Positions 1 through 16,309 of a DNA stretch of 18,596 nt are shown in pieces; the first letter of the stretch is position 1, and every line of letters begins with the position of its first letter. Under the pieces are notes generated by a model that saw only the letters and a list, made by a program, of their open reading frames with translations, searched no databases and was not told where the DNA came from. The translations under genes and the position numbers were made by a program. Location: the NCBI GenBank assembly GCA_038217285.1, contig JBBQPO010000107.1, positions 1-18,596 on the forward strand, written 5' to 3'. Source of the DNA: Chthonomonadales bacterium (GTDB taxonomy: Bacteria; Armatimonadota; Chthonomonadetes; Chthonomonadales; Chthonomonadaceae).

Positions 1-138
1 GGAGGGGGCGAAGGACTTCAATCGCGTTCGCGGCTACATCTCGACGTTGCGCAAGCAAGGTCAGAAGGTGTTGTCCGCCCTCCATGACGTCTTCTCAGGA
101 CGCCCTCTCATGCCCGATCTTACCCCCTAAGCAGTTAC
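1..138 (+). mobile_element. Right end of an IS66-family insertion sequence (ISBst12-like), truncated by the window start
   Basis: The transposase C-terminus is followed immediately by ...CCCCTAAGCAGTTAC (ends at 138). Its reverse complement GTAACTGCTTAGGGG matches the GTAA-type IS66 terminal IR. The predicted 8-bp target duplication would be CAGGAGGA (139-146). Confidence 0.85.
2..130 (+). CDS. IS66-family transposase, C-terminal fragment (5' partial)
   Basis: Manual frame-2 translation EGAKDFNRVRGYISTLRKQGQKVLSALHDVFSGRPLMPDLTP* matches the typical IS66 TnpC C-terminus (GA..F..IRSYISTLRKQG..VL.AL). Confidence 0.88.
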   Translation, partial: EGAKDFNRVRGYISTLRKQGQKVLSALHDVFSGRPLMPDLTP

Positions 139-230
139 CAGGAGGACATCTTTTCCGGAATAGCGAACAGACCAGTAGTAATCGATTGAGGCAGTTCATT
201 CCTTCCAGTCTAACAGATTAGCCATGATGG

Positions 231-1793
231 TTGGTGTCGTTAGGCAGAATTGAAAATCAGTTGAATTATAGAGCAACAAAGACGCAGGAAGCTATCCTTG
301 TTCAAGATGATCGGGCAGACTACGACATCGCGCAACCGCACGCTGCGGCGATGATACACTCCCTCCGCGCATTTGGGTACGATCTGGCGACGGCGCTTGC
401 CGACTTGATAGACAACAGCATCTCGGCGAACGCAAAGAATGTCCGGCTGGAATTTCACTGGGATGGAGATCAATCTACCATTTCCGTAGTGGACGACGGT
501 AAGGGCATGTCGGAGAAGGATTTGCTGGCGGCGATGCGGCCGGGCAGTATTAGTCCGCTTCAAGCGCGGGATCCGCAGGATTTGGGAAGGTATGGCCTGG
601 GTCTTAAAACGGCATCGTTTTCGCAAGCCAAGCGCCTTACGGTTGGAACGAAACAAGGTGGCGCAATCTCTGTACGCTGCTGGGATCTAGACTATGTCAC
701 CGAGTGCAGTGACTGGCGTCTGCTGAGGAAGGGTACGCCTGCCTTCACCCAGGATGCTCTCCCCCGTCTTGAAGCTATGACTTCCGGCACCGTCGTTTTC
801 TGGGAAGCGATGGATCGCATCACACCGCTCGGCACCGAGACAAACAGCGACCGGGCGCACCAGCAGTTTCTCCAGCGCGCCGATCAGGTCAAAGCGCATC
901 TGGCAATGGTCTTTCATCGCTTCCTCGACCCTCGCGAAAACGTCGGCAAAACGCCCCTTAAGATCTGGCTGAACGGCAACCCCATCGAAGCCTGGGATCC
1001 GTTCCTGAGTGGCGAGAAGGCAACCCAGCTTCTGACGGAAGAGGCGGTGCCTTTACTGGGAAGTCGCCTGACCGTTAAACCCTACGTTCTGCCCCACCAC
1101 ACCAAGATTTCCGCTGAAAAGCATAAGCTAGCCTCCGGAGTAAAGGGATGGACCGCGCAACAAGGTTTCTATGTCTATCGCAACCGACGTCTGTTAGCGG
1201 CGGGAACCTGGCTCGGCCTCGGCTTCCAACAGGAAGAGCACTATAAGCTGGCGCGCATCCAGCTCGACATTCCGAATCACATGGATGCCGAGTGGGAAAT
1301 AGACGTAAAGAAATCCCGCGCTACCCCACCGCCCGCGATACGTGAACAGTTGAAGACGCTGGCCACGGCTGCACGAAGTAAGGCTTCCGCCGTCTACCGC
1401 CATCGAGGGGCGCGTATTCAAAAGGGCACCCAGGAGATGGTCTACCTCTGGGAGCAGAAGGTGCGCCGGGGCAAAGTGTTTTATCGGGTCAACCGTGAGC
1501 ATCCTGTTGTGGCGGCGATGATGCAGTCTTGCGGAGAAAAGACCCGTGCTTTGCTGCACCTGCTCGAAGAGACAATCCCGATTGCTATCATCACAAAAGA
1601 CTGGATGGAAGACCCGACAAAGCAATCGGCTCCCTTCGATGACAAAACGAGTCCTGAAATGCTTCTGGTTTTGAAGCAGGTCTATTTCGGTCTGACAGCA
1701 TCCGGGAGCACACCCCAACAGGCCAAAATTGCCCTGCTCAGTATGGAGCCATTTCATCAATTTCCCGATATTATTGCCTCCATTGGCGAATAG
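231..1793 (+). CDS. MORC/MutL-like GHKL ATPase (HATPase_c_3), MzaB-like; start codon uncertain (TTG231/GTG234/TTG261)
   Basis: GHKL motifs DLIDNSISA, DDGKGM, GRYGLGLKTAS and GTVV; S5-like domain with QGFYVYRNRRLL and WEIDVKKS; first gene of a Z1-DUF4420-AIPR operon. Confidence 0.92.
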   Translation: MVSLGRIENQLNYRATKTQEAILVQDDRADYDIAQPHAAAMIHSLRAFGYDLATALADLIDNSISANAKNVRLEFHWDGDQSTISVVDDGKGMSEKDLLAAMRPGSISPLQARDPQDLGRYGLGLKTASFSQAKRLTVGTKQGGAISVRCWDLDYVTECSDWRLLRKGTPAFTQDALPRLEAMTSGTVVFWEAMDRITPLGTETNSDRAHQQFLQRADQVKAHLAMVFHRFLDPRENVGKTPLKIWLNGNPIEAWDPFLSGEKATQLLTEEAVPLLGSRLTVKPYVLPHHTKISAEKHKLASGVKGWTAQQGFYVYRNRRLLAAGTWLGLGFQQEEHYKLARIQLDIPNHMDAEWEIDVKKSRATPPPAIREQLKTLATAARSKASAVYRHRGARIQKGTQEMVYLWEQKVRRGKVFYRVNREHPVVAAMMQSCGEKTRALLHLLEETIPIAIITKDWMEDPTKQSAPFDDKTSPEMLLVLKQVYFGLTASGSTPQQAKIALLSMEPFHQFPDIIASIGE

Positions 1794-1804
1794 GAGATCG
1801 ACCC

Positions 1805-4654
1805 TTGCCTGCCCATAGTAACGCCGACTTTGAAAATGGCCTGATAATCGCCCGAGTATTGTTGAGCAGATACGCGGCCCCCCAGTCGGAACAGTTCGAT
1901 GAGGCCGTTCGCATGGCATCTGCCGCCGTTCCCGGCGTCAATACCGAAGACCTCCGTAAAGAACTGGAGATTCTATACAGCGTCTTCATTCCGGAAGGTA
2001 CGATTCTGATCGACAGGACCGGACATGAAGAGTGGCTGGATGAATGGAGGGTGAAGGGGACAAAGGATTTCTGGTATCGCTACCAGAGATACTTGGAGCA
2101 GGAAAAGGGCATGCCGCCCCATTCTATCGCCCGCCTGGACAGTCTGACCAACACAACGCTTGGAATGCTGGAAAATCCCGCGCGTCTGGGAGAATGGTAT
2201 AGACGCGGCATGGTTGTAGGGCAGGTGCAGTCCGGCAAAACAGCAAACTACACAGGGCTTATCTGCAAGGCGGCAGACGCCGGATACAAACTCATTATCG
2301 TGATGGCAGGCATCCATAACAGCCTCCGCAGTCAGACGCAACTGCGCGTGGACGAAGGATTTCTTGGCCGCGACACAAAGCAGGATCGTCTGTTTCGACT
2401 GGACAGTCCCAAGATTGGAGTCGGCCGGATACAAATGCCTTCCGGCAGCAAAATCGCAGCGCATTCCCTGACTACCAGCGACGAAAAGGGCGATTTCAAA
2501 AGGGCGATGGCGCAGGGCGCCGCGACTTATATAGGTGATAATCCGGTAATACTGGTGATAAAGAAGAACGGCTCTATCCTTAAGAATCTGCTGGGGTGGA
2601 TACAGCATAATCTGGGTGAACTGCATGGAGAAACAAAAGTCGTTCCTGGGCATATTCCCCTGTTGCTTATCGATGATGAGGCAGACAACGCTTCTATCAA
2701 TACGAAGTTGCTGGAAGTGAATGCACGAGGGAAGTTCAATACAAATCAGGATGTGACCCGCATCAACGCTTTGATAAGGATGCTGCTCAAGGCGTTCACA
2801 TGCAGCGCGTATGTGGGATACACGGCAACTCCTTTCGCCAACATCTTTATCCCACATGACGTGGAGACACAGGAGGAGGGCGCGGATCTCTTCCCACGCA
2901 GCTTCATTGTCAATCTCCCTGCACCCTCCAACTATATAGGTCCTGTGCAGGTGTTCGGTATGGAGGCAAAGGACTCCGAGACAGAGGTCGGACTGCCGAT
3001 TCGCAGATATGTCCTGGATTCGGATGACCAACTGCCGGGAAGTCATAAAAAGGAGTTGACTCCCCAGTCCCTGCCCGATTCGCTGAAAGAGGCAATCCGA
3101 GCGTTCATTCTCACCTGCGCTGCACGGGCGGCACGGGGACAAGAGGATGAACACAATTCGATGCTGATCCATGTCACGCGGTTTGTGAATGTTCAGAAGA
3201 TCATCTGGGATCTGGTGAATACGGAATTATATTCTCTGTGCCTTCGCCTTGAACATGGGGATGGGGAGAGAACGCCTACACTTCGCGACGAACTGCATGC
3301 GCTATGGGAGGACGATTTTGTTCCGACCTCCGAGGCCGTCCGAATTCAGATGCCTGGTGACAGTGGTCTCGTTTCGCTAACCTGGGAAGAAGTAAATTCT
3401 CACCTGACGCAGTCCGCCCTGAAAATTATTGTGAAGCAGATCAATGGGACGGCAATGGATGTGCTGGACTACTACGACCACAAAAACGGTCACAGCGTCA
3501 TTGCTATCGGCGGCGATAAACTCTCGCGCGGACTGACGCTGGAAGGACTCTCGGTCAGTTACTATCTGAGGGCCTCCCGAATGTACGATACGCTGATGCA
3601 GATGGGACGCTGGTTCGGATACCGACCGGGATATGCCGACCTGTGCCGCCTGTACACAACCTTGGAACTGGAAGAGTGGTACAAGCACATCACTGCGGCA
3701 AGCGAAGAACTGCGGCAGGACTTTGATGTGATGGCGGCACAAGGCATGACACCAGAGCAGTACGGCCTTAAAGTGCGGACTCACCCGGGGGGGCTTACCG
3801 TCACAAGTGCAGGGAAAATTCGCTACGGAACTAAAATAAAGGTCGCGTTCTCAGGACAACTTGTTGAAACTTATCGACTGCCTAAAGCGACGACGGTCAT
3901 CGAACACAACTTTGCTGCGACAGACGAATTTATACGGCAAATCGAGCAGAATGCCAGTCGCCCCGACGAACATGAATATGTTTGGAAGAGTGTTCCTGCG
4001 CAGGCCGTGAAGGATTATCTCCATGAATTAACGGGCGACAGCGGTATGCCACCGACACCCGCATCTGATCCTGCAAAACTAGCAGAGTTCATAGAACTGA
4101 AAAACAATCGAGATGAACTCACAGAATGGACTGTCGCACTCATTAGCACCAATACAGCTACAGCCAAAACCAGGGAATATGTAGGCGGACTGGAGGCCGG
4201 TCTTCCCATCCGTACACCTGATCAAGATTCCACATCACAAACTTATATCGTTCGTAACCGGCATATCCTGACGGAGTCACACGAGTGGCTTGATTTTTCC
4301 GATGCAGAGAGAGAGGCAGCGATTAACAAACGCAATGAATGGGAAAGATCAAAAAACGGTGATAAGGCGAAAAATTACACAGAGCCAAACGGCAAGAGCG
4401 TTCGTGCCGTTCGGTCTAAGAAGTGTGGGCTCCTTCTAATCTATCCGCTTGATCCAAGAGCCGACAATTTATTCCCTGCCGGTGACGTGCGATCCAACGG
4501 CAGGCCCATCATTGGATTTGCAATCAGTTTTCCAGGCACGAATAGCCGATCTGACATGGAAGACACTGTGGAGTATATGGTGAATCGGGTATTTATACAG
4601 GAGGAACTTGAAGGATATTCGAAGGAAGAGGAGTTAAACGGTCATGCCGACTGA
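1805..4654 (+). CDS. SF2 helicase-like ATPase with Z1 domain (MzaC-like)
   Basis: Walker A GQVQSGKT, Walker B LLIDDEAD, YVGYTATPFAN, HNSMLIH, IGGDKLSRGLTLEGL, YDTLMQMGRWFGYR. TTG start preceded by a TAGGAG RBS overlapping the upstream stop. Confidence 0.93.
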   Translation: MPAHSNADFENGLIIARVLLSRYAAPQSEQFDEAVRMASAAVPGVNTEDLRKELEILYSVFIPEGTILIDRTGHEEWLDEWRVKGTKDFWYRYQRYLEQEKGMPPHSIARLDSLTNTTLGMLENPARLGEWYRRGMVVGQVQSGKTANYTGLICKAADAGYKLIIVMAGIHNSLRSQTQLRVDEGFLGRDTKQDRLFRLDSPKIGVGRIQMPSGSKIAAHSLTTSDEKGDFKRAMAQGAATYIGDNPVILVIKKNGSILKNLLGWIQHNLGELHGETKVVPGHIPLLLIDDEADNASINTKLLEVNARGKFNTNQDVTRINALIRMLLKAFTCSAYVGYTATPFANIFIPHDVETQEEGADLFPRSFIVNLPAPSNYIGPVQVFGMEAKDSETEVGLPIRRYVLDSDDQLPGSHKKELTPQSLPDSLKEAIRAFILTCAARAARGQEDEHNSMLIHVTRFVNVQKIIWDLVNTELYSLCLRLEHGDGERTPTLRDELHALWEDDFVPTSEAVRIQMPGDSGLVSLTWEEVNSHLTQSALKIIVKQINGTAMDVLDYYDHKNGHSVIAIGGDKLSRGLTLEGLSVSYYLRASRMYDTLMQMGRWFGYRPGYADLCRLYTTLELEEWYKHITAASEELRQDFDVMAAQGMTPEQYGLKVRTHPGGLTVTSAGKIRYGTKIKVAFSGQLVETYRLPKATTVIEHNFAATDEFIRQIEQNASRPDEHEYVWKSVPAQAVKDYLHELTGDSGMPPTPASDPAKLAEFIELKNNRDELTEWTVALISTNTATAKTREYVGGLEAGLPIRTPDQDSTSQTYIVRNRHILTESHEWLDFSDAEREAAINKRNEWERSKNGDKAKNYTEPNGKSVRAVRSKKCGLLLIYPLDPRADNLFPAGDVRSNGRPIIGFAISFPGTNSRSDMEDTVEYMVNRVFIQEELEGYSKEEELNGHAD

Positions 4655-5681
4655 TGGTACCGTGACGCCGCTTGCTGCACTCTTTGCCGAAATCGAGCAG
4701 GCGCAAATGCCTGAAGCAATCCGAACAGGCACTGTGCAACGCAGAATTCCTTCCCGCAGTAGTTGCGATCTATTTGTAGGGGTGCATAAACCCGCCAATG
4801 TCCGCTTGCTGACCGCTATTTTTGATGTACGTGCGCTGCCCGACATGTACGACCTGCCTGCCTTTAGAAGTCTGGAAATCCAAGTTCAACGAGAAAGAGA
4901 AGGTCATACAGAAAGGCTAACGGCAACCGTTCGCTCTCCGCATTCAGTATGGAACGACATCTTTACAAGTCTGGCGGAAGACATTGCCCGTACGGTTGGA
5001 AGCCAGACTGATGAAAGCGAAGCTGCGCGAATATTTCGAGGCAGGTTGCTCCAATGGCAGACACTCTTGCAGAAGACGAGCGCTACTGGGCTGACCGAAA
5101 AACAGCAGCAAGGTCTCTATGGCGAACTCTGGTGTCTGAGGGAAGTCGTGTTGCCCGCCCTGTCTGCATCCTCTGCCATTGCAGCATGGACAGGTCCTGA
5201 AGCGGCCGACCAGGACTTTCAGTTCGTCGGAGCCGCTGCACTCGAAGTTAAGACGACACGCTCTTCCGCTACGCCACTGCTATCTATTTCCAGTGAACGT
5301 CAGCTTGACGATACGGGTCTAAAATCTCTCCATTTGCTGCATCTTTCGCTGGAAAAAATGCAGGGCGCAGGAGAAACACTACCGCAGATCGTGGCGGGAT
5401 TGCGCTCCCTGCTTGAAGCCTTTCTGCCTGCTCACGCACTCTTCGAGGATAAACTCTTGAATGCCGGATATTTGGAAACGCAGTCCGCGCTGTATCAAAA
5501 TGCGGGTTATATGCTGCATGGCGTCCATCTGTACCGGGTCACCGAGGGCTTTCCACGCATCACACCGCATGAATTAATGCCAGGGGTGGAAAGAGTGCGC
5601 TACGAAGTCGGTACTGCTGCATGCCAGTCTTATGCCACCGACCTTCGTACTTTCGCAGAATATCTTGGAGCATTACTGTGA
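4644..5681 (+). CDS. PD-(D/E)XK nuclease-like protein, DUF4420 (MzaD-like)
   Basis: GLYGELWCL, WTGP...QDF...LEVKTT, ISSERQLD and EGFPRI motifs; overlaps the upstream gene by 11 nt; GAGGAG RBS. Confidence 0.9.
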   Translation: MPTDGTVTPLAALFAEIEQAQMPEAIRTGTVQRRIPSRSSCDLFVGVHKPANVRLLTAIFDVRALPDMYDLPAFRSLEIQVQREREGHTERLTATVRSPHSVWNDIFTSLAEDIARTVGSQTDESEAARIFRGRLLQWQTLLQKTSATGLTEKQQQGLYGELWCLREVVLPALSASSAIAAWTGPEAADQDFQFVGAAALEVKTTRSSATPLLSISSERQLDDTGLKSLHLLHLSLEKMQGAGETLPQIVAGLRSLLEAFLPAHALFEDKLLNAGYLETQSALYQNAGYMLHGVHLYRVTEGFPRITPHELMPGVERVRYEVGTAACQSYATDLRTFAEYLGALL

Positions 5682-7750
5682 GCGTTCAAAGTGAAACACT
5701 GGAACAGTTTGCGACTACAGTACAGCAACAGGTAATCGCCCATGTCGAGGCTGAAGCAGAAGGAGCCTTTAAGGAAGAGATGTTCGTTCATGTCATGCTG
5801 GCCTACCTTGCTGACGCTGGTGAGATAGAAGACGCTGAGGTATGTCTGCACAGGGCGAAAGGTATTCAGGTCAGCGGTTATGCCCTGAGCGAAAATGGTG
5901 AGAGCCTGGACATTATCGTCGCCATCCATACCGATATTGCCCCTCCCCAAACGGTGGGAAAAGCAGAGACAGACGCGGCAATTAAAAGAGCAGTCCAGTT
6001 TTTCAACAGTGCATCTGCCGGTTATCATCACGAAATCGAGGAAAGCGGTGCGGTCTTTGATGCGGCCCAGCAGATCTACAACGCCCGAATGTGCGATCTG
6101 ACACAGGTGCGATTCTTACTGATAACGGATGGCATCGTCAAGAACCCGCCTCCGAAAGACAAGGACTTGCCGGGTATCCGCGCCAATTTTGAAATATGGG
6201 ACATTGAGCGTCTTTATCGCTTAGTGACGTCGGGCCTGGAGCGCGAAGCAATCGAAATTGACTTTGTGGATGCGCTTGGCTCACCAATTCCTTGTCTTGT
6301 GCAGCCAGACACTACGCCGGGCTATTCGGCATATTTAGCGATATTCCCTGCGAGAGCATTAGTCGAACTCTATGGAAAATATGGGGCCCGCTTATTGGAG
6401 CGGAATGTTCGCTCCTTTCTCCAGGCACGAGGAAAGGTCAATTCCGGGATGCGAGACACTATTCGTAAAGAGCCTGGGATGTTTCTCGCCTTCAATAATG
6501 GTCTGTCGGCAACGGCGGAGGCAGTTACCATAGAGGATCTGCCAGAAGGCGGTAAGGGCCTTCGGACGATACATGACCTGCAAATCGTCAATGGCGGGCA
6601 GACAACCGCTTCTATCTTTCACGCAGTTAAACGGGATAAGGCAGACGTTTCGCAGTTGTTTGTACAGGTCAAGCTCACAGTGCTGAATGATCCTGCACAG
6701 ATGGACACTGTTGTGCCCCTGATCTCTCGCTACGCAAACACGCAAAACAAAGTGCAGGAAGCCGATCTTGCTGCCAACGACGTTTATCACCGAAAATTGG
6801 AAGAACTGTCCCGGACTGTGTGGGCTCCCGCGAAGCAAGGCACACAACGACAGACACATTGGTTCTATGAGCGCGCACGAGGCCAATATCTCAATGAGCA
6901 TCTCCACGCCGGAACGCCCGGTAAAATAAGAGATTTTGAAGCAATGTTTCCGAAGGCACAGTTGTTCGCAAAGACCGACCTGGCGAAAGTAATGGTCACA
7001 TGGCATCTCAGACCAGACATCGTGAGCAAAGGTGCACAGGCTTGTTTCTTGTGGTTTATGAGCAACTTGGAGAAGATCGAGGAAAAGGACGGTAAACTGG
7101 ACGCTCAGGGTTTCGAGCGTATCGTTGCGAAGATAATTCTCTATCGTTCTGCGGAACGCATTATCAAACATAAAGAGATGCCATTTACTGGCTATTGGGC
7201 AAATATCGTGACCTATACTGTTGCCCGACTTGTTCAGGAAACGGACAACCTTCTTGATACGGGTCGTATCTGGAAGGAGCAGAAGATCAGCGCTGTGCTG
7301 GAAACAGCAATCAACGATATTTCACGAAGTACCTGGTCGCATATCACACAGCCGTACGGCGGCTCGAATGTGACTCAGTATTGCAAGCAGTCAAAATGCT
7401 GGACAGCCTATCTGGACAGAATTGTGTGTGTGCCAGCAGGCGTAAAGGCGGAAACGCTGTCAGGAATGAACGGAACCAAACCTCGTGGCCGAGCGAATGC
7501 CGATACCATCGCTGTCCAAGAGACCATTAAACGTGTTAAGGCGATTGAATCCAGTCAATGGTTTGCGATCCATACATGGGCTAAAGACGCTGGAGTATTG
7601 AATGGGATTCAGCTTGAACAGGTAGTCACATTCGCTGAAATTGCTGGAAGCGGCGGTGCATTTACGACTCGCAAAGCCAATGAAGCGGCAAAGATATTGG
7701 ACACGGTTAGTTCCAAAGGATATGTGCTCCACCCAGGCAGCGCATCTTGA
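5678..7750 (+). CDS. AIPR family protein (abortive infection phage resistance; MzaE-like)
   Basis: LLERNVRSFLQ, FLAFNNGLS, QIVNGGQTTASI, ISRYANTQNKV and WFYERARGQY motifs. Start reassigned to GTG5678, which gives a GTGA overlap with the upstream stop and has GGAG at 5667-5670. Confidence 0.93.
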   Translation: MSVQSETLEQFATTVQQQVIAHVEAEAEGAFKEEMFVHVMLAYLADAGEIEDAEVCLHRAKGIQVSGYALSENGESLDIIVAIHTDIAPPQTVGKAETDAAIKRAVQFFNSASAGYHHEIEESGAVFDAAQQIYNARMCDLTQVRFLLITDGIVKNPPPKDKDLPGIRANFEIWDIERLYRLVTSGLEREAIEIDFVDALGSPIPCLVQPDTTPGYSAYLAIFPARALVELYGKYGARLLERNVRSFLQARGKVNSGMRDTIRKEPGMFLAFNNGLSATAEAVTIEDLPEGGKGLRTIHDLQIVNGGQTTASIFHAVKRDKADVSQLFVQVKLTVLNDPAQMDTVVPLISRYANTQNKVQEADLAANDVYHRKLEELSRTVWAPAKQGTQRQTHWFYERARGQYLNEHLHAGTPGKIRDFEAMFPKAQLFAKTDLAKVMVTWHLRPDIVSKGAQACFLWFMSNLEKIEEKDGKLDAQGFERIVAKIILYRSAERIIKHKEMPFTGYWANIVTYTVARLVQETDNLLDTGRIWKEQKISAVLETAINDISRSTWSHITQPYGGSNVTQYCKQSKCWTAYLDRIVCVPAGVKAETLSGMNGTKPRGRANADTIAVQETIKRVKAIESSQWFAIHTWAKDAGVLNGIQLEQVVTFAEIAGSGGAFTTRKANEAAKILDTVSSKGYVLHPGSAS

Positions 7751-7776
7751 AAACTGCTTGTCGGGCTGCATATACT
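7747..7776 (+). promoter_or_regulatory. Putative sigma70-type promoter for the methyltransferase-vsr unit
   Basis: TTGAAA (7747-7752)-N18-TATACT (7771-7776); an alternative -10 TACAAT lies at 7802-7807. Confidence 0.45.
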
Positions 7777-7871
7777 GCATTCCGCCATAGAAAATATGGG
7801 GTACAATAGCAGCAGAATAGCACGACTCCTGTACACTGCTTCGAATATTTCTGGGTTTAGAAGGAACGAAG

Positions 7872-9161
7872 ATGAATTTCAGACTCGGCGAGCTTTTCTG
7901 CGGAGCAGGCGGTTTAGCGTGGGGGGCGTTCCATGCTGGAAAGGAACAGCCTATCGAGCAGAACGGGGAAAGATATTCGATTTCCCATTCCTGGGCAAAT
8001 GATCTGGATAGATCTGCATGCCAGACATATGCGGCAAACCTTCTTCTGAATGGCACGGTCGAGAAAGCAGATATAGACAAGGCGATTGTAAATGTTTCGG
8101 ACTGGCGTACATTGCCCAGTTCAGTCGAACAGCCTCGGCCATCGGTCATTTGTGACCGTGTTGAAGAGTTGACGAAGTTCATTGAAGATTTGCCCGATAT
8201 TGATGGGTTTGCGTTTGGTTTTCCCTGCAATGATTTCAGTGCCGTAGGAGAGCGCAAAGGATTAGATGGTGAATTCGGCCCCCTTTACACGCATGGGATA
8301 AAGGTTCTGAACGCGAAGAGACCGCGCTGGTTCATAGCAGAAAATGTTGAGGGACTGCTGCACCGTGACGGAGGCCGCGTAGGCGAGCAGATCAAAAAAG
8401 AGTTGTCCGAAGCGGGGCCAGGTTATGTGCTCACTACGCATCTCTACCGCTTTGAACAGTACGGTGTGCCACAGTATCGCGCGCGGCTTGTTATCGTCGG
8501 TATTTCATTACCGGATGCTGCACAGGGCATAGTTTTCCGCATTCCTGAACCCACAATGAAAGAGGGGTTTCGCACTGCTCAGTGGGCAATGGAACACGAC
8601 CCCACTTTACCTAATGTGATCAAGCCCCTCACGCCTACGGTCCCTAACCACAGGTTTAAGAAGCTTTCTGAGCAGGTCCGCAAGCGCCTGGAACACACCT
8701 TGCCTGGACAGAATGCTTGGAACGCAGCTATACCGGCCGAATATGCTTTACACGTCAAAAACGCGCATCTTAGTATGATCTATAGGCGGCTTGTAGGGGA
8801 TGAGCCAGCTTACACGATCACTGGGAACGGCGGCGGCGGCACACACGGCTATCATTGGAGTGAGGCTCGCGCACTTACCAATCGTGAACGGGCTCGCCTT
8901 CAGTCCTTCCCCGATACCTATCGATTTCATGGCGGCGAGGACAGTATAAGGCGGCAGATAGGTATGGCGGTTCCACCCCTCGCTGCAAAAGTCATTTTCG
9001 AAGCCATCCTAAAAACCTATGCCCGTCAGCCCTATATTGGGGTCCCTCCTGACACTGGTGGTTCCGCGCAACGCCGACGGAAGGAATCCTCTTCAACACG
9101 CATCCCATATCCACAATCTGAGTTGCCGCTGGAAGCCGATGTACTAACCCTGACTGCATGA
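7872..9161 (+). CDS. dcm: DNA (cytosine-5)-methyltransferase, M.BbvI-like
   Basis: Motif I ELFCGAGG, IV GFPCNDFS (catalytic Cys), VI AENVEG, VIII PQYRARL, IX-X RERARLQSFPD...QIGMAVPP; TRD segment YTITGNGGGGTHGYHW. Confidence 0.96.
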   Translation: MNFRLGELFCGAGGLAWGAFHAGKEQPIEQNGERYSISHSWANDLDRSACQTYAANLLLNGTVEKADIDKAIVNVSDWRTLPSSVEQPRPSVICDRVEELTKFIEDLPDIDGFAFGFPCNDFSAVGERKGLDGEFGPLYTHGIKVLNAKRPRWFIAENVEGLLHRDGGRVGEQIKKELSEAGPGYVLTTHLYRFEQYGVPQYRARLVIVGISLPDAAQGIVFRIPEPTMKEGFRTAQWAMEHDPTLPNVIKPLTPTVPNHRFKKLSEQVRKRLEHTLPGQNAWNAAIPAEYALHVKNAHLSMIYRRLVGDEPAYTITGNGGGGTHGYHWSEARALTNRERARLQSFPDTYRFHGGEDSIRRQIGMAVPPLAAKVIFEAILKTYARQPYIGVPPDTGGSAQRRRKESSSTRIPYPQSELPLEADVLTLTA

Positions 9162-9218
9162 GGAACACCACGACCGTTCCTTGCGTCAGTAAGTTCAACA
9201 TTACATTGGGATAGGCCC

Positions 9219-9665
9219 ATGCCTGACAGCCACACGCTAGAGCAGCGACGATACAATATGTCCCGTATCCGCAGCTACGGGACGACACCGGAAAAACGGT
9301 TGGGAACCCTCTTGCGTATCTTGTTTCCGGAAGAGGTCATCGAAGAACGATCCACGACACTACCCGGCAAGCCTGATTTCTGCCTACCGCATCTACATCT
9401 CGCAGTATTCGCTGACGGCTGTTTTTTTCATCGATGCCCGCTTCACTTCATCGCTCCCGTGAATAACCAGGAATACTGGCACACAAAGATCATCCGAAAC
9501 CGTCAGCGTGATCTTAAAAACAACCGCATACTCAAGGCCAGCGTCATACAGCCTGTCCGTATATGGGAACATAATTTGGGCCGCGATCTTACGCGTGCGC
9601 GTCGCCAGATTCGTCGAGGCCGCCGTGTTGCCATGCATCTGGTTGTGCAGCCGACAGACATATAA
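9219..9665 (+). CDS. vsr: Very short patch repair endonuclease
   Basis: D...EQRRYNMSRIRS..T.PE, LPGKPDF, DGCFFH, YW..KI.RN..RD and RIWEH; directly downstream of a C5 MTase. Confidence 0.92.
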   Translation: MPDSHTLEQRRYNMSRIRSYGTTPEKRLGTLLRILFPEEVIEERSTTLPGKPDFCLPHLHLAVFADGCFFHRCPLHFIAPVNNQEYWHTKIIRNRQRDLKNNRILKASVIQPVRIWEHNLGRDLTRARRQIRRGRRVAMHLVVQPTDI

Positions 9666-11980: not shown

Positions 11981-14611
11981 TCAGCGGGCGGCGTCGGCGG
12001 GCGGGTAGGAGGCGTCGCCGTGCGTGTGCCGCCACAGGATCTCGGTCAGTTTCTCGGGGTCGGCCCGGTCCGGCTCGGAGAAGTCCAACTGCGCCGAGAC
12101 GGCGGCCCAGTGGCGCGGCGGACCGGAGAGCTGGGCGAGGGGCGGGTTCTTGAGGTTCAACGCCACCTCATTCTTGAGGGCCGTATAGGGCCTGAAGTCG
12201 GCTTTCTCCTGGAACACGCCGCGCATCGGTAGGGCGGCGGCATCGAACTGGTTGAGCGGCTTGAGAGCGAGGATCAACTCCATCGTGCGCAGCATGTTCA
12301 GTTGATTGTAGTTGACACTGGAGATCTGGCCGCGCCTGTTGAACGGGCTGATGACAAGTCCGGTTGTGCGATGCCCCTCGACATGATCCAGTCCGCCCTG
12401 CGCATCGTCCTCCACGATGAAGATCACGGTCGGCTCGTCCTGCCAGTATTTTTTGCTGTGCGTGACCGCCTCGACAAACCTTCCGACCGCGAGATCGTTG
12501 TCGGCGACATCGGACTCCGGCGTATACGAACCTGGCCGCGTGCCCGAGGTGTGGTTGTTGCCGAACCAGATGGTCGTCAACTGCGCCAGCCCCGCATGCA
12601 CGTTTTTCTCGTCTCCTTTGTCTTTGCCCTGCAGGTCCGCTAAGATGCGCTCGCAGTGGGCGACATCCCTATTGCGCTCCGGCGTGGCCTCGAACTTCGC
12701 GTCGTATTTATGGTCGGAGTGGCGCTGCATGCTGGGCAGCGGCCCGAACTCGCCGTAGTTGTAGAAGGTGCGCCCTGCCTGCATCGCGGCCTGCCAGAGA
12801 AAAGGATTGCCCGCATAGACCAGGGGGTCCGTGCCGCAGCAGGGATAGGAGCGCGGATAGTTGTTCATGGCGCGCTCGGAGTAGTCGCTTGCAAACGCCT
12901 CGTTCAGCCAGTGGTGCCCATCGGCGCTGATCGCGCCGGAGCAGTAGAGGTTGTCGAACAGCCCGAACTCATGGGCCAGCGCATGCTGGTTGGGGGTGAT
13001 CTTCTGCCCGAACATCACCAGTTTGGGATCTCCGCCGATGTGCCCGGCAGGCACAGGAATGTCGCCGAAGACCTGATCGTAGGTTCTATTTTCCTTGATG
13101 ATCAGCACGACATGTTTGAAACGTGTCCAGAACGGATCGGGCGGGGTGAGAGCGGCTTCCATGCGGTCGAAGCGGTTGTTCCGCGCGGTCTGGGCGGTGT
13201 ACTGCGCCAGCATGCGGGCGTCCGGCACATCGATCACGCCCAGGCTGCCCATGACGGCGTAGACGCTGTGCCCGATGAAGTTGCTGCCTCCGACGACTCC
13301 GCCCGGCCCCGCTTCCGGCGTCGTCGCCCCCGAGTTCGCGCGGGGGTGCGTGATGATCGCGCCCAGCGAGCCGATGCCTTTGCTGTTGGCGACGTAGAGT
13401 GTTTTGCCGTCCGCGCCCAGCGCTACGCCGAGCGGGAACCAGGCGGTGGGAATGAGGCCCGCGATCGTCGTCTGCGCCGCGCTCCCGCCCGCCGGCGCGT
13501 CCAGTGTCAGCACCTCTACGGCGTTGTCGCCGCCCAGCGTGACGTAGAGCGTTTTGGCGTCGGGCGCCAGGGCGAGGCCGTTGGGGCAGGCGGCGGCGAG
13601 GCGAGCAGGCGCCGGGCTAACCGGAATGGTCTCCACGACCGTGTCGATGTCTGTGCGAATGACGCTGACAGTTTCGGCGTTGGCGTTGGCGGTGAACAGA
13701 TGCGTGCCATCAGGGGAGAGCAGGAGGTCGGTAGGCTGTAAGCCGACGTCGATGGTCTTCGTCACGGCGTGGGCGGTGTCGGAGACGAGGAGGGCAGCGC
13801 TCACCACGGAGAGGGTGCCTGTGGAGGCTTTGTAGGTGTCGGGATCGACCACGACCGGGTCTTCAAAATCTCGGGTATCGCCTGCAGCCGGCGTCTTGCC
13901 GCCCCGGTTGGCGACATAGATCTTGTCGCCCTGCGGGCTGACGACGACGCGCTCCGGCGAGCTGCCGACCGGAACCTCGACAAACTTCGCCTCGCCGCTC
14001 TCGGCGCTGTAGGAGGTGAGATCCACGGCGGCCAGGGTCGCGTTGTTGAAGAGGGTCACATAGAGCGTTTTGTCGTCGGGGCTGAGGGCCAGGCCACACG
14101 GAGCGGATTCTTTGGCCTGAAGATTTGGGCCGATGCGCGACCGAAGCGCGAATGCGATAGGTTTCTGCTCCGTGGCCTGTCCCGTCTCGCTGACCTTTGT
14201 GACGAAGACCACGCCGCCCTTCGCATGGCCCGTGGTATAGAGGGTGCGCCCGTCGTGCGACCAGGCGATACCGCCGAAGTTGTGTGCGCCAGGCAGAACC
14301 TCGGGGCGGAACTGCCGTGTCGTGGTGTCGAGTAGGCGTACTTCGCGCCCGAGCATGACCGCCAGCAGCTTGCCGTCTGGGCGCATCGCCATATCCAGTG
14401 GCCGCCCCTCGAAGACGAGATTCTGGCCTACGGGCGCAAGTGTCTGCCCGGTAGGAACGAAGTAGGTTCCATCCGCCTGCTTGCCGATGATGGCCTTCTC
14501 CAGCGTTTTCTGGGCCGGGCGCGCGTGCAGACGCAGCGCTCCATAGAGCAGAGCCGCGCTCACCGGCAGGAGCAGGGCGAGAGGACGCACGGTTCGTGAA
14601 AATGATGACAT
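11981..14611 (-). CDS. Secreted YncE/YVTN beta-propeller plus alkaline-phosphatase-superfamily phosphoesterase
   Basis: Signal-peptide-like N-terminus; repeated P.GLALSPD.KTLYV blades; C-terminal KENRTYDQVFGD, SADGHHW and EDDAQGGLDHVEGHR. ATG14611 has a GAAGGGG RBS. Confidence 0.9.
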   Translation of the reverse strand: MSSFSRTVRPLALLLPVSAALLYGALRLHARPAQKTLEKAIIGKQADGTYFVPTGQTLAPVGQNLVFEGRPLDMAMRPDGKLLAVMLGREVRLLDTTTRQFRPEVLPGAHNFGGIAWSHDGRTLYTTGHAKGGVVFVTKVSETGQATEQKPIAFALRSRIGPNLQAKESAPCGLALSPDDKTLYVTLFNNATLAAVDLTSYSAESGEAKFVEVPVGSSPERVVVSPQGDKIYVANRGGKTPAAGDTRDFEDPVVVDPDTYKASTGTLSVVSAALLVSDTAHAVTKTIDVGLQPTDLLLSPDGTHLFTANANAETVSVIRTDIDTVVETIPVSPAPARLAAACPNGLALAPDAKTLYVTLGGDNAVEVLTLDAPAGGSAAQTTIAGLIPTAWFPLGVALGADGKTLYVANSKGIGSLGAIITHPRANSGATTPEAGPGGVVGGSNFIGHSVYAVMGSLGVIDVPDARMLAQYTAQTARNNRFDRMEAALTPPDPFWTRFKHVVLIIKENRTYDQVFGDIPVPAGHIGGDPKLVMFGQKITPNQHALAHEFGLFDNLYCSGAISADGHHWLNEAFASDYSERAMNNYPRSYPCCGTDPLVYAGNPFLWQAAMQAGRTFYNYGEFGPLPSMQRHSDHKYDAKFEATPERNRDVAHCERILADLQGKDKGDEKNVHAGLAQLTTIWFGNNHTSGTRPGSYTPESDVADNDLAVGRFVEAVTHSKKYWQDEPTVIFIVEDDAQGGLDHVEGHRTTGLVISPFNRRGQISSVNYNQLNMLRTMELILALKPLNQFDAAALPMRGVFQEKADFRPYTALKNEVALNLKNPPLAQLSGPPRHWAAVSAQLDFSEPDRADPEKLTEILWRHTHGDASYPPADAAR

Positions 14612-14671
14612 GGTTTCCCCTTCGTGTAATTTCGGCAGGTGCACAGATACTTTCGGCTCACGTGTAACCGC

Positions 14672-14785: not shown

Positions 14786-16309
14786 TTATGTCGTGAGAGG
14801 GGCAGAGAGCAGGATGGGCGCGAGAGCGTCTTCCATCTCGGCGATCTCCGCGTCCGCGATTTCAGGAAACTGTTTGCGTTTGTTCTGCGACAACCTGCCG
14901 CCGTTCTGCAGGCACAGACGTACCAACAGGGCGGCTCGTCGGTCAGGCATCTCCACGACGTTCCTCACTGCCACGAAAGCTGCGTCGAATACGGTGAGAA
15001 AGTCCAGTTCCTCCTTGAAGTCCTCCCGAATCGTCTCGGAGATACGATCATACAGATATTCGGCCTGAAAAGTGGCATCGAAGAACCGATAAAGGTTGCG
15101 TGTGTCGTTCTTGACGGCTATGCCATGGTCGTCCGTGAAGTCCCAGTCGGTCGCGGCGCGCACCGGTTTTGAAAAGGCTTCCAGGGCCGCGTCATACAGG
15201 TGACGTTGGCGCAGAATTGCCGCACTTACCGGAAAGACCACGCCAGGCGGCGTGAAATTGCGTTGCTGCAGGGCATAGTGGATCAGAAAACGATGCAGTC
15301 GCCCGTTGCCGTCCTCGAACGGATGGATGAAGACAAACGCGAACGCACTGACTGCCGCTGCGATCACTGGATCCAGGGGGGCATGCAGGATTCTCTCAGT
15401 CAGGGTCATCCAACCGTGCATCAGAGCGGGAACATCCTCCGGCCGTGGACAGATAAAATGCACATATTCGCCGTAGCGGCGTGTCGTCTCACCGACGAAG
15501 TTTTGGAAGTCCCGATAGGCTTGGGCCGCGTAGCGCGGCTCAACGATACTCGCCTGCAACGCAATCAGGGCGTCTTGATCGGTCGGATCGAAGGCAGCGA
15601 GCGCCCGCAACGCCTGGAGGAATCGTTCTTCGCGGGTTCGGCTCGGGACTTCCCCTTCGATGGCGAACGAGGAGCGCGTCTCTTTGGTATAGAGGAAGCT
15701 GACCGCGCGCCCCAGGGTTTCCGGAGCATACTGCTCGGTGAGCCTTTTGGCCTCCTGATCCAGTCCCATCGCGATCATCGCTTCCAACTTGCGCGTTCGG
15801 CGTACCGTCGGGCAGAGTTCGAAGCCTCCAAGCAGATTGTTGCGCACACGGTGGCGCGACGAGTTGACAGCCTGGGAAACGAAATGCAAGCCAGGGTCCA
15901 GGGCATCTACATAGTTGCCAGCCTGTGCCGGTGGCAGATCGAGGGTATCGCCCGTAAGAGTTTCATAAAAAAACCAGGCCCGACGACTGTAGGCGCCAGT
16001 TGGCTCGGCACGAACCCAGGCGGTCAGTGCGTCCCCTCCCAAGGTGGTGAGCGCGGCACAGAGGATCCCTAAGTCGGCAGGTTCATAGCGCAAGGCAAAG
16101 CGCAAATTGCCGAGAAGCGTCCCGTCGGTCGCATACCGTGGGGGATAGTACTCCTCCGTAAACGTTGGCTCCTGATGAATGCGTCGTGCCCCCGCAACAA
16201 TATAACTGCGTACTCCGGGCAGCGGCAGGCGAGAACCGGCAATCGTGTGGAGCGCCATCTGTCCGACCGGGAGGGGAGGAGAGGTAGAATGAGAAGGTGG
16301 AGTTGTCAT
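14786..16309 (-). CDS. Fic family protein (class II, with intramolecular inhibitory motif)
   Basis: Canonical HPFEDGNGRLHR active site (15290-15325) and an N-terminal-side SFAIEG (S/TxxxEG) motif (15653-15670). Confidence 0.93.
   Translation of the reverse strand: MTTPPSHSTSPPLPVGQMALHTIAGSRLPLPGVRSYIVAGARRIHQEPTFTEEYYPPRYATDGTLLGNLRFALRYEPADLGILCAALTTLGGDALTAWVRAEPTGAYSRRAWFFYETLTGDTLDLPPAQAGNYVDALDPGLHFVSQAVNSSRHRVRNNLLGGFELCPTVRRTRKLEAMIAMGLDQEAKRLTEQYAPETLGRAVSFLYTKETRSSFAIEGEVPSRTREERFLQALRALAAFDPTDQDALIALQASIVEPRYAAQAYRDFQNFVGETTRRYGEYVHFICPRPEDVPALMHGWMTLTERILHAPLDPVIAAAVSAFAFVFIHPFEDGNGRLHRFLIHYALQQRNFTPPGVVFPVSAAILRQRHLYDAALEAFSKPVRAATDWDFTDDHGIAVKNDTRNLYRFFDATFQAEYLYDRISETIREDFKEELDFLTVFDAAFVAVRNVVEMPDRRAALLVRLCLQNGGRLSQNKRKQFPEIADAEIAEMEDALAPILLSAPLTT

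Follow-up and report, generated by a model that had tools for sequence, protein, structure and literature searches.

We describe a six-gene operon on an 18,596-bp stretch of DNA from a Chthonomonadales bacterium, in which four genes resembling the core of the Mza defense system stand next to genes for a C5 cytosine DNA methyltransferase and a Vsr repair endonuclease. The window, by which we mean this whole stretch, is the entire contig C107 of a 6.2 Mb assembly that comprises 459 contigs and is 95% complete. The six open reading frames (ORFs) are co-oriented on the + strand and occupy positions 231-9665.

The first gene (231-1793) encodes a 520-residue MORC-type GHKL ATPase that resembles MzaB and matches the Pfam HATPase_c_3 model (1.7e-30) and the PADLOC MzaB model (3.7e-119). 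It is followed by genes for a 949-residue, MzaC-like protein with the features of a DEAD-Z1 superfamily 2 (SF2) helicase-like motor (1805-4654; Pfam Z1, 1.5e-82; PADLOC MzaC, 6.8e-209), a 345-residue, MzaD-like putative PD-(D/E)XK nuclease of the DUF4420 family (4644-5681; Pfam DUF4420, 1e-74; PADLOC MzaD, 1.5e-26) and a 690-residue, MzaE-like AIPR protein (5678-7750; Pfam AIPR_N, 1.1e-40, and AIPR, 2.5e-95; PADLOC MzaE, 3.8e-98). The C5 methyltransferase (7872-9161; 429 residues; Pfam DNA_methylase, 5.3e-60; PADLOC MTase_II, 1e-95) and the Vsr very-short-patch repair endonuclease (9219-9665; 148 residues; Pfam Vsr, 1.7e-14; PADLOC Vsr, 1.5e-13) complete the set.

The TAG stop codon of the MORC gene (1791-1793) lies 11 nt before the TTG start of the Z1 gene at 1805, the ATG of the DUF4420 gene (4644) precedes the TGA of the Z1 gene (4652-4654) to give an 11-nt overlap, and the DUF4420 and AIPR genes share a GTGA start/stop overlap at 5678-5681. 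The AIPR frame is open from 5621; we favor the GTG start, since the alignment to the NCBIfam MzaE model already begins at residue 6 of the protein read from it. Gaps of 121 nt and 57 nt separate the AIPR gene from the methyltransferase gene and the methyltransferase gene from vsr, respectively. A preliminary description of this DNA, made from its letters, had reported six co-oriented genes of which the first four are tightly coupled, and every position and junction that it gave is borne out. The best sigma-70-like promoter match on the + strand, TTGAAA-18-TATACT (7747-7776; 10 of 12 positions), falls in the gap before the methyltransferase gene. It is a hint only, as the region holds seven such sites against 7.8 expected, with no excess over shuffled sequences.

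The GC content is 0.49-0.53 over the operon, compared to 0.60-0.66 downstream. Bases 1-139 (+ strand) form a repeat edge that recurs at the start of another contig of the same genome (G000:C321:3-141). Within it, bases 2-130 are the last 42 codons and the stop of an ORF truncated by the contig start; this 42-residue fragment has no Pfam match, and it may resemble the tail of an IS66-type transposase. The repeat, which stops about 90 bp short of the MORC gene, is probably the end of a mobile element. Because of its low GC content and this upstream repeat, the operon looks like an acquired island.

The four core proteins

The MORC protein keeps the ATP-binding boxes of its class, namely the N-box (D58/D61/N62), G1 (D88-G90-G92) and G2 (G119-G124/K126), and has weak sequence matches to the structures of human MORC3 and MORC4. 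In the Z1 protein, the Pfam Z1 match spans residues 426-662 and is accompanied by a Walker A motif of an unusual type (Q142-S-G-K145-T146), a DDEAD box (290-294) and a QxxR motif VI (Q599-M-G-R602). All three motifs are invariant in 17 aligned Z1 sequences. No PDB chain matched this protein by sequence at E <= 1.

The closest biochemical parallel for such a protein comes from the CglI and NgoAVII restriction systems. As set out in the passages that describe them (Zaremba 2014; Toliusis 2017, 2018), these systems combine a stand-alone C5 methyltransferase (GCSGC), a nuclease subunit with PLD and B3 domains and a DEAD-Z1 subunit, and cleavage requires ATP-driven translocation on double-stranded DNA (dsDNA) by the DEAD-Z1 subunit. 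H.CglI has the same unusual Q-containing Walker A motif and QxxR motif VI, and the Pfam Z1 model also matches the Corynebacterium glutamicum genome that we used as a control. That the H.CglI motifs are invariant in the family of the window gives the strongest grounds for regarding the Z1 protein as the translocase of a methylation-protected restriction enzyme. The two arrangements share a separate nuclease subunit, a DEAD-Z1 motor with these motifs and a stand-alone C5 methyltransferase, which in the window is recognized by its sequence. They differ in that the CglI/NgoAVII nuclease is a PLD plus B3-like protein, for which Pfam finds no gene in the window, while the candidate nuclease here is the PD-(D/E)XK protein DUF4420. 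In addition, CglI and NgoAVII lack MORC, AIPR and Vsr, all three of which are present in the window, and the 949-residue Z1 protein has extra N- and C-terminal regions compared to theirs.

In DUF4420, residues E161, D191, E201 and K203 (the last two in the motif E201-V-K203) are invariant across 46 sequences. The AlphaFold 2 (AF2) model of this protein has a pLDDT of 93.7, and its residues 145-345 align in VIA-align with NhoI (Z 7.5), I-Ssp6803I (7.4), Hjc (7.1) and PvuII (6.7); the N-terminal alpha/beta domain gave weak structural matches. By sequence, the PDB matches were marginal, with the influenza PA endonuclease at E 0.035. Among the core proteins, DUF4420 alone has, as judged from its sequence, an invariant nuclease (E-D-ExK) site, and for that reason it would be the cutting subunit.

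The AF2 model of the AIPR protein (pLDDT 88.2) has three parts, an N-domain, a middle domain and a helical tail. Residues 5-188 adopt a PD-(D/E)XK nuclease fold (AF1548, Z 9.1; FokI, 8.8; AspBHI, 8.3; MspJI, 7.9), and residues 211-363 are ParB-N/sulfiredoxin-like (Z 5.8-6.6), with an invariant QxxNGGQT motif in this middle domain (Q302, N305, G306, Q308 and T309). As modeled, AIPR resembles a degenerate nuclease fold to which a ParB/sulfiredoxin-like module is attached. We considered AIPR_N as a second active nuclease and rejected it, as conservation is poor at the candidate catalytic residues: D78 is conserved in 28 of 45 sequences, D151 in 25 and K155 in 15. By sequence, no PDB chain matched AIPR at E <= 1, and a Foldseek search of the PDB with the DUF4420 and AIPR models returned nothing at E <= 0.001. 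The assignments for both proteins are based on VIA-align, whose Z scores of 6-9 are middling and speak to fold rather than function.

Methyltransferase linkage across the family

The methyltransferase of the window scores 147 bits against the NCBIfam dcm superfamily model, above its cut-off, and its sequence matches in the PDB are M.HaeIII and M.HhaI. Motifs I (FxGxG, 9-14), VI (ENV, 157-159), VIII (QxRxR, 201-205) and IX (RE, 338-339) are present. Compared to most partner methyltransferases, the stretch from motif I to motif IV is longer by about 40 residues, and the protein ends in a 45-residue tail that is rich in R, S and P. Vsr keeps D53, C68, H71, C73 and D98, covering the catalytic Asp/His and the Cys/His metal site, which we presume to be equivalent to the corresponding residues in the numbering of Escherichia coli Vsr. 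It departs from the consensus at five positions where at least 90% of 31 sequences agree, and its NCBIfam vsr score of 86 bits is just below the cut-off of 97.85. Very-short-patch repair is known from the Dcm-Vsr pair, and Vsr genes accompany restriction-modification systems that produce 5-methylcytosine (5mC). The window is similar in having a C5 methyltransferase gene followed by a vsr gene with its catalytic residues, but here the pair is embedded in a defense operon.

Relatives of the Z1 protein are abundant. More than 8000 proteins matched, which is a lower bound, and the nearest among the matches listed are P0002 and P0003, at 81% and 72% identity. Species-representative genomes from many bacterial and archaeal phyla contain 685 Z1-matching stretches, and the genome of the window itself has only one Z1 gene. 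From the 685 stretches we compared 77 loci whose Z1 proteins are 32-54% identical to that of the window and which span many phyla, including methanogenic archaea. ORFs at these loci were labeled with hidden Markov models (HMMs) iterated from the six proteins of the window, and a gene was counted as linked if it lay no more than 5 kb from the Z1 gene, whatever its side or strand. A locus was treated as having full context when its sequence extended for at least 4 kb upstream of Z1 and 5.2 kb downstream.

A C5 methyltransferase is found at nearly all loci of this family that have full context. It is present in 65 of the 77 genome loci, together with MORC in 70, DUF4420 in 74, AIPR in 71 and Vsr in 30. 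Among the 47 with full context, the corresponding counts are 45 for the methyltransferase, 42 for MORC, 47 for DUF4420, 46 for AIPR and 18 for Vsr. Metagenomes gave a similar picture: 25 of 80 loci had full context, and 23 of these carry the methyltransferase, 23 MORC, 24 DUF4420, 25 AIPR and 13 Vsr. The best metagenome match is 50% identical to the window, with none closer in that scan. The genome of the window holds about four C5 methyltransferase loci per 6.2 Mb, so that a random 13-kb stretch would be expected to contain one in less than about 1% of cases, by rough estimate; at least three further C5 methyltransferase matches lie outside the window, on contigs C186, C225 and C170. Set against this figure, rates of 45/47 and 23/25 show that the methyltransferase linkage exceeds chance. 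The preliminary description had called the operon a methylation-guarded variant. These counts favor the link to methylation, but the operon is not a variant, as the methyltransferase-linked form is the common one. The further suggestion that Vsr repairs 5mC deamination fits its presence in 18 of the 47 and 13 of the 25 full-context loci.

The position of the methyltransferase gene is less constant than its presence. It lies upstream in 33 of the 47 full-context genome loci and downstream in 12, which makes the order seen in the window, with the methyltransferase and Vsr downstream, a minority arrangement, found in 12 of the 45 loci that have both full context and a methyltransferase. Two loci, L030 and L041, have a gene order identical to that of the window. 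The exceptions to linkage are L018, which lacks both MORC and the methyltransferase, and L038, in which the methyltransferase lies beyond 5 kb.

Several loci show additional genes. In L044 (L044:7338-8015) and L074 (L074:5311-6009), neither of which has Vsr, an HhH-GPD base-excision glycosylase gene adjoins the C5 methyltransferase gene, and this enzyme probably stands in for Vsr in the repair of T:G mismatches. Proteins with NOV_C (PF13020) and DUF2971 domains recur in or beside the operons (L022:8890-9780, L068:1759-2514 and L071:5471-6238; L067:3549-4400, L071:4596-5468 and L083:16566-17495), and a second MORC-like gene is found in L042, L045, L050, L051 and L071. All three look like optional extra subunits. 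Two loci without MORC have another gene between the methyltransferase and Z1, encoding a Schlafen-group-3 helicase in L058 (7984-9957) and an HNH_2 endonuclease in L060 (9120-9899). Finally, in L033 (L033:18515-19702) the methyltransferase is followed by a protein whose C-terminal B3-like DNA-binding domain is of the NgoFVII type, which connects the family with nuclease subunits like those of CglI/NgoAVII.

Mza proper, as modeled in PADLOC (MzaA-E) and NCBIfam (NF041931-35), has MzaB-E homologs in the same order as the window, but it also has the ankyrin-sigma protein MzaA, which the window lacks, and the window falls below the NCBIfam equivalog level. No MzaA-type gene is present in the 230 bp upstream of the operon, where the contig ends, and a full-length MzaA was not found in the 95% complete assembly of the genome, in which the PADLOC MzaA model matches sigma or ankyrin parts in separate ORFs. 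Across the 77 loci, Pfam identified a protein with ankyrin repeats and sigma-70 regions 2-4 in only one of 225 unlabeled neighboring ORFs of at least 150 residues. This 713-residue ORF, in L079, lies between the C5 methyltransferase and MORC genes. Since L079 carries both an MzaA-like gene and a methyltransferase, the two are not alternatives, and the view of the preliminary description, that this is a variant with the methyltransferase rather than MzaA, is not supported. A C5 methyltransferase lies upstream in L079 and in its relative L080, and both loci score just below the NCBIfam Mza equivalog cut-offs (for example 834/850, 1388/1500 and 1009/1050 bits). When the MzaA-like protein of L079 was searched against 401 Bacteroidota genomes, a full-length match was found only in its own genome; there was one partial match, 71% identical and at a contig edge, and the remaining matches were RpoD-like sigma domains. 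We conclude that MzaA is a rare add-on to the methyltransferase-linked form.

This form is already in print as a prediction. In the part of their paper that treats MORC operons, Iyer, Abhiman and Aravind (2008; Biol Direct 3:8; PMC2292703) define a third type consisting of MORC, a superfamily II helicase with Z1, a restriction endonuclease-fold protein with an E-D-ExK site and AIPR, and they describe cytosine methylases and Vsr-superfamily endonucleases as frequent in such neighborhoods. They also propose a clamp or loop-former role for MORC by analogy with MutL. The window has an identical gene set, down to the MORC boxes, Z1, E-D-ExK, AIPR and the methylase with Vsr, and shows no architectural difference from this in silico prediction. 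In the relevant passages of Miller et al. (2022; Nat Commun 13:5731; PMC9523054), the putative core is given as Z1, a PD-(D/E)XK DUF protein and a cytosine methyltransferase, to which type II adds AIPR and an association with MORC, with mzaA in few systems. The window contains the full type II component set. The systems of that study have about 20% identity to mzaBCDE and are described there as undetected by PADLOC or DefenseFinder, whereas the window is strongly matched by the PADLOC v2 HMMs. The same paper refers to mzaABCDE as 'validated', citing Gao et al. 2020, and a 2026 SAR11 paper states, in the part concerned with Mza, that it defends against single-stranded DNA phages by a mechanism that is unknown. 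In searches of the literature from 2019 on bacterial MORC, the Z1 domain, DUF4420 and AIPR in abortive infection, no paper listed has a title or abstract opening that addresses the mechanism of the operon. Thus, the layout is the ordinary form of a known family, and the window adds no new architecture.

We read the operon as a horizontally acquired, ATP-dependent, restriction-modification-like defense module, and put the probability of this reading at roughly 70%. The stand-alone C5 methyltransferase would methylate host DNA and Vsr would correct the T:G mismatches that arise from 5mC deamination, while the four translationally coupled core proteins would attack DNA without the mark. By analogy with H.CglI, the DEAD-Z1 protein would be the dsDNA-translocating motor that serves the DUF4420 nuclease. 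MORC may serve as a clamp or loop-former gated by ATP, a role like that of MutL toward MutH and Vsr, and AIPR would be an accessory or regulatory subunit. The overlaps between the genes and the co-evolution described below suggest that the core proteins form a complex.

The linkage data also bear on a different view, in which the core acts independently of methylation, by abortive infection or some other trigger, and the methyltransferase and Vsr form an orphan or remnant module of their own that shares defense islands with it. The name AIPR comes from abortive infection, and the PADLOC AbiU model also matches the AIPR protein (3.7e-24); moreover, the 121-nt gap with the best promoter-like site splits the methyltransferase from the core, with which it does not co-evolve, and in L018 and L038 the 5 kb to either side of Z1 contain no methyltransferase. 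Nevertheless, 68 of 72 full-context loci, from many phyla and from archaea, keep a C5 methyltransferase within that distance, a rate far above what island clustering would give for one specific enzyme class. Without exception, the partner belongs to the C5 class, and Vsr frequently accompanies it. We consider a methylation-independent core very unlikely.

Core co-evolution and methyltransferase exchange

Fifty-two complete five-gene systems served as the comparison set, in which pairwise distances were related by Spearman correlation; because the pairs are not independent, this comparison is exploratory. The distances of MORC and Z1 correlate at 0.91 and those of the remaining core pairs at 0.74-0.79, compared to only 0.38-0.40 when any of the four is paired with the methyltransferase. 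Of the core proteins, DUF4420 is conserved least, its median identity to the window being 29%. The methyltransferase of the window reaches a best identity of 34% among the 51 partner methyltransferases and forms a singleton cluster. The preliminary description had asked whether homologs of the core lack this methyltransferase, and the answer is divided: the C5 class is conserved, but this particular enzyme is not.

Exchange is most evident in one core lineage of seven loci, at a Z1 identity of at least about 55%, that holds three methyltransferase clusters. The recognition domains of these clusters are 106, about 141 and 203-215 residues long and only 11-23% identical between clusters, and the catalytic parts of the swapped methyltransferases are 16-27% identical. 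In the swapped pairs that we sampled, DUF4420 is about 48-53% and AIPR about 58-65% identical, the same as in unswapped pairs. We conclude that the four core proteins co-evolve while the methyltransferase is exchanged, making it an obligate yet exchangeable partner.

Weighing the readings

Several results weigh against the restriction-modification-like reading. In a co-variation scan of all core proteins, no core region co-varied with the methyltransferase: the whole-protein partial correlations (r) were -0.05 to 0.08, and the best 30-column window reached a partial r of 0.32, with medians of 0.01-0.08. This missing co-variation leaves unexplained how the nuclease would match the site of the methyltransferase. 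The methylase-linked form is also known from its genes alone. The NCBIfam Mza scores of the window are 39-55% of the cut-offs (MzaB, 462/850 bits; MzaC, 785/1500; MzaD, 164/420; MzaE, 412/1050), and this wide shortfall makes the tested Mza only a distant relative and places the window on a branch further removed within the family. In addition, the contig starts 230 bp upstream of the operon, at the repeat, so that the window may miss the native promoter or a partner gene located further upstream. Lastly, the catalytic motifs, which the preliminary description had called intact, are kept in MORC, Z1, DUF4420 and Vsr, but the methyltransferase has PCN rather than PCQ at motif IV (118-120) and GM at motif X (G364-M365), where N is found in at least 95% of 52 aligned sequences. 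Owing to these departures, the activity of the methyltransferase is not certain.

The stable core and its changing methyltransferases keep alive the reading that the core is methylation-guarded and sequence-agnostic. Such a core would either read 5mC as a self signal or use the methyltransferase as a site sensor, in the manner of the methyltransferases Mod of Type III systems and PglX of BREX, so that any C5 methyltransferase could be plugged in. The seven-locus lineage with its divergent recognition domains, the unchanged identities of DUF4420 and AIPR in swapped pairs, the lack of any core region that tracks the methyltransferase and the variable position and strand of its gene are all in line with this proposal. 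On the other hand, the accounts of CglI and NgoAVII, the only characterized Z1 systems, give the nuclease its own DNA-recognition domain and have the methyltransferase act alone. The missing co-variation is weak evidence in any case, because specificity can hinge on few residues. A conserved docking surface is unlikely given the 16-27% identity of the swapped catalytic parts, and no 5mC-reader fold (SRA or MBD) was found in the two models searched, DUF4420 and AIPR. We regard a sequence-agnostic core as unlikely. If it were true, swapping the methyltransferase would re-program both self-marking and the attack on non-self with the nuclease unchanged, and a prokaryotic MORC machine would read an epigenetic mark, in parallel with the link of its eukaryotic relatives to DNA methylation.

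The motif departures raise the question of whether the window holds a decaying or silenced copy, with a mobile element inserted about 90 bp ahead of the MORC gene and a methyltransferase weakened at motif X. The repeat edge at bases 1-139, the N to M change in motif X, the PCN of motif IV and the Vsr score of 86 against 97.85 bits could all be read in this way. However, all six frames are open over their full length and the other catalytic motifs are kept, and loss of the methyltransferase beside an intact nuclease should be counter-selected. Moreover, PCN is the form of motif IV in the active eukaryotic DNMT3 enzymes. Decay is accordingly the most improbable of the readings considered here, and a functional restriction-modification-like module remains our preferred one.

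Beyond the operon, the high-GC part of the contig carries a second defense-type gene about 5 kb away, which encodes a 507-residue Fic-domain protein (14786-16309, - strand; PADLOC candidate defense family PDC-S24, 1.5e-177; SoFic, 1.1e-22). An 887-residue ORF at 11981-14644 (- strand), which matches both beta-propeller (SGL/lactonase-like) and phosphoesterase families, has no relation to the operon.

The new elements of this analysis are the co-evolution of the core alongside methyltransferase exchange and the model of AIPR as a nuclease fold with a ParB/sulfiredoxin-like module. Although this is a very large family, what MORC, DUF4420 and AIPR do in it is predicted only, and it remains a worthwhile experimental target. 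Our comparative results sharpen what to aim at: a methyltransferase that is obligate yet exchangeable, MzaA as an add-on, the nuclease site of DUF4420 and the two-module fold of AIPR. Because prokaryotic MORCs are thought, in the evolutionary scheme of Iyer et al. (2008; PMC2292703), to be ancestral to the eukaryotic MORC ATPases, the mechanism of the bacterial system would be of wider interest.

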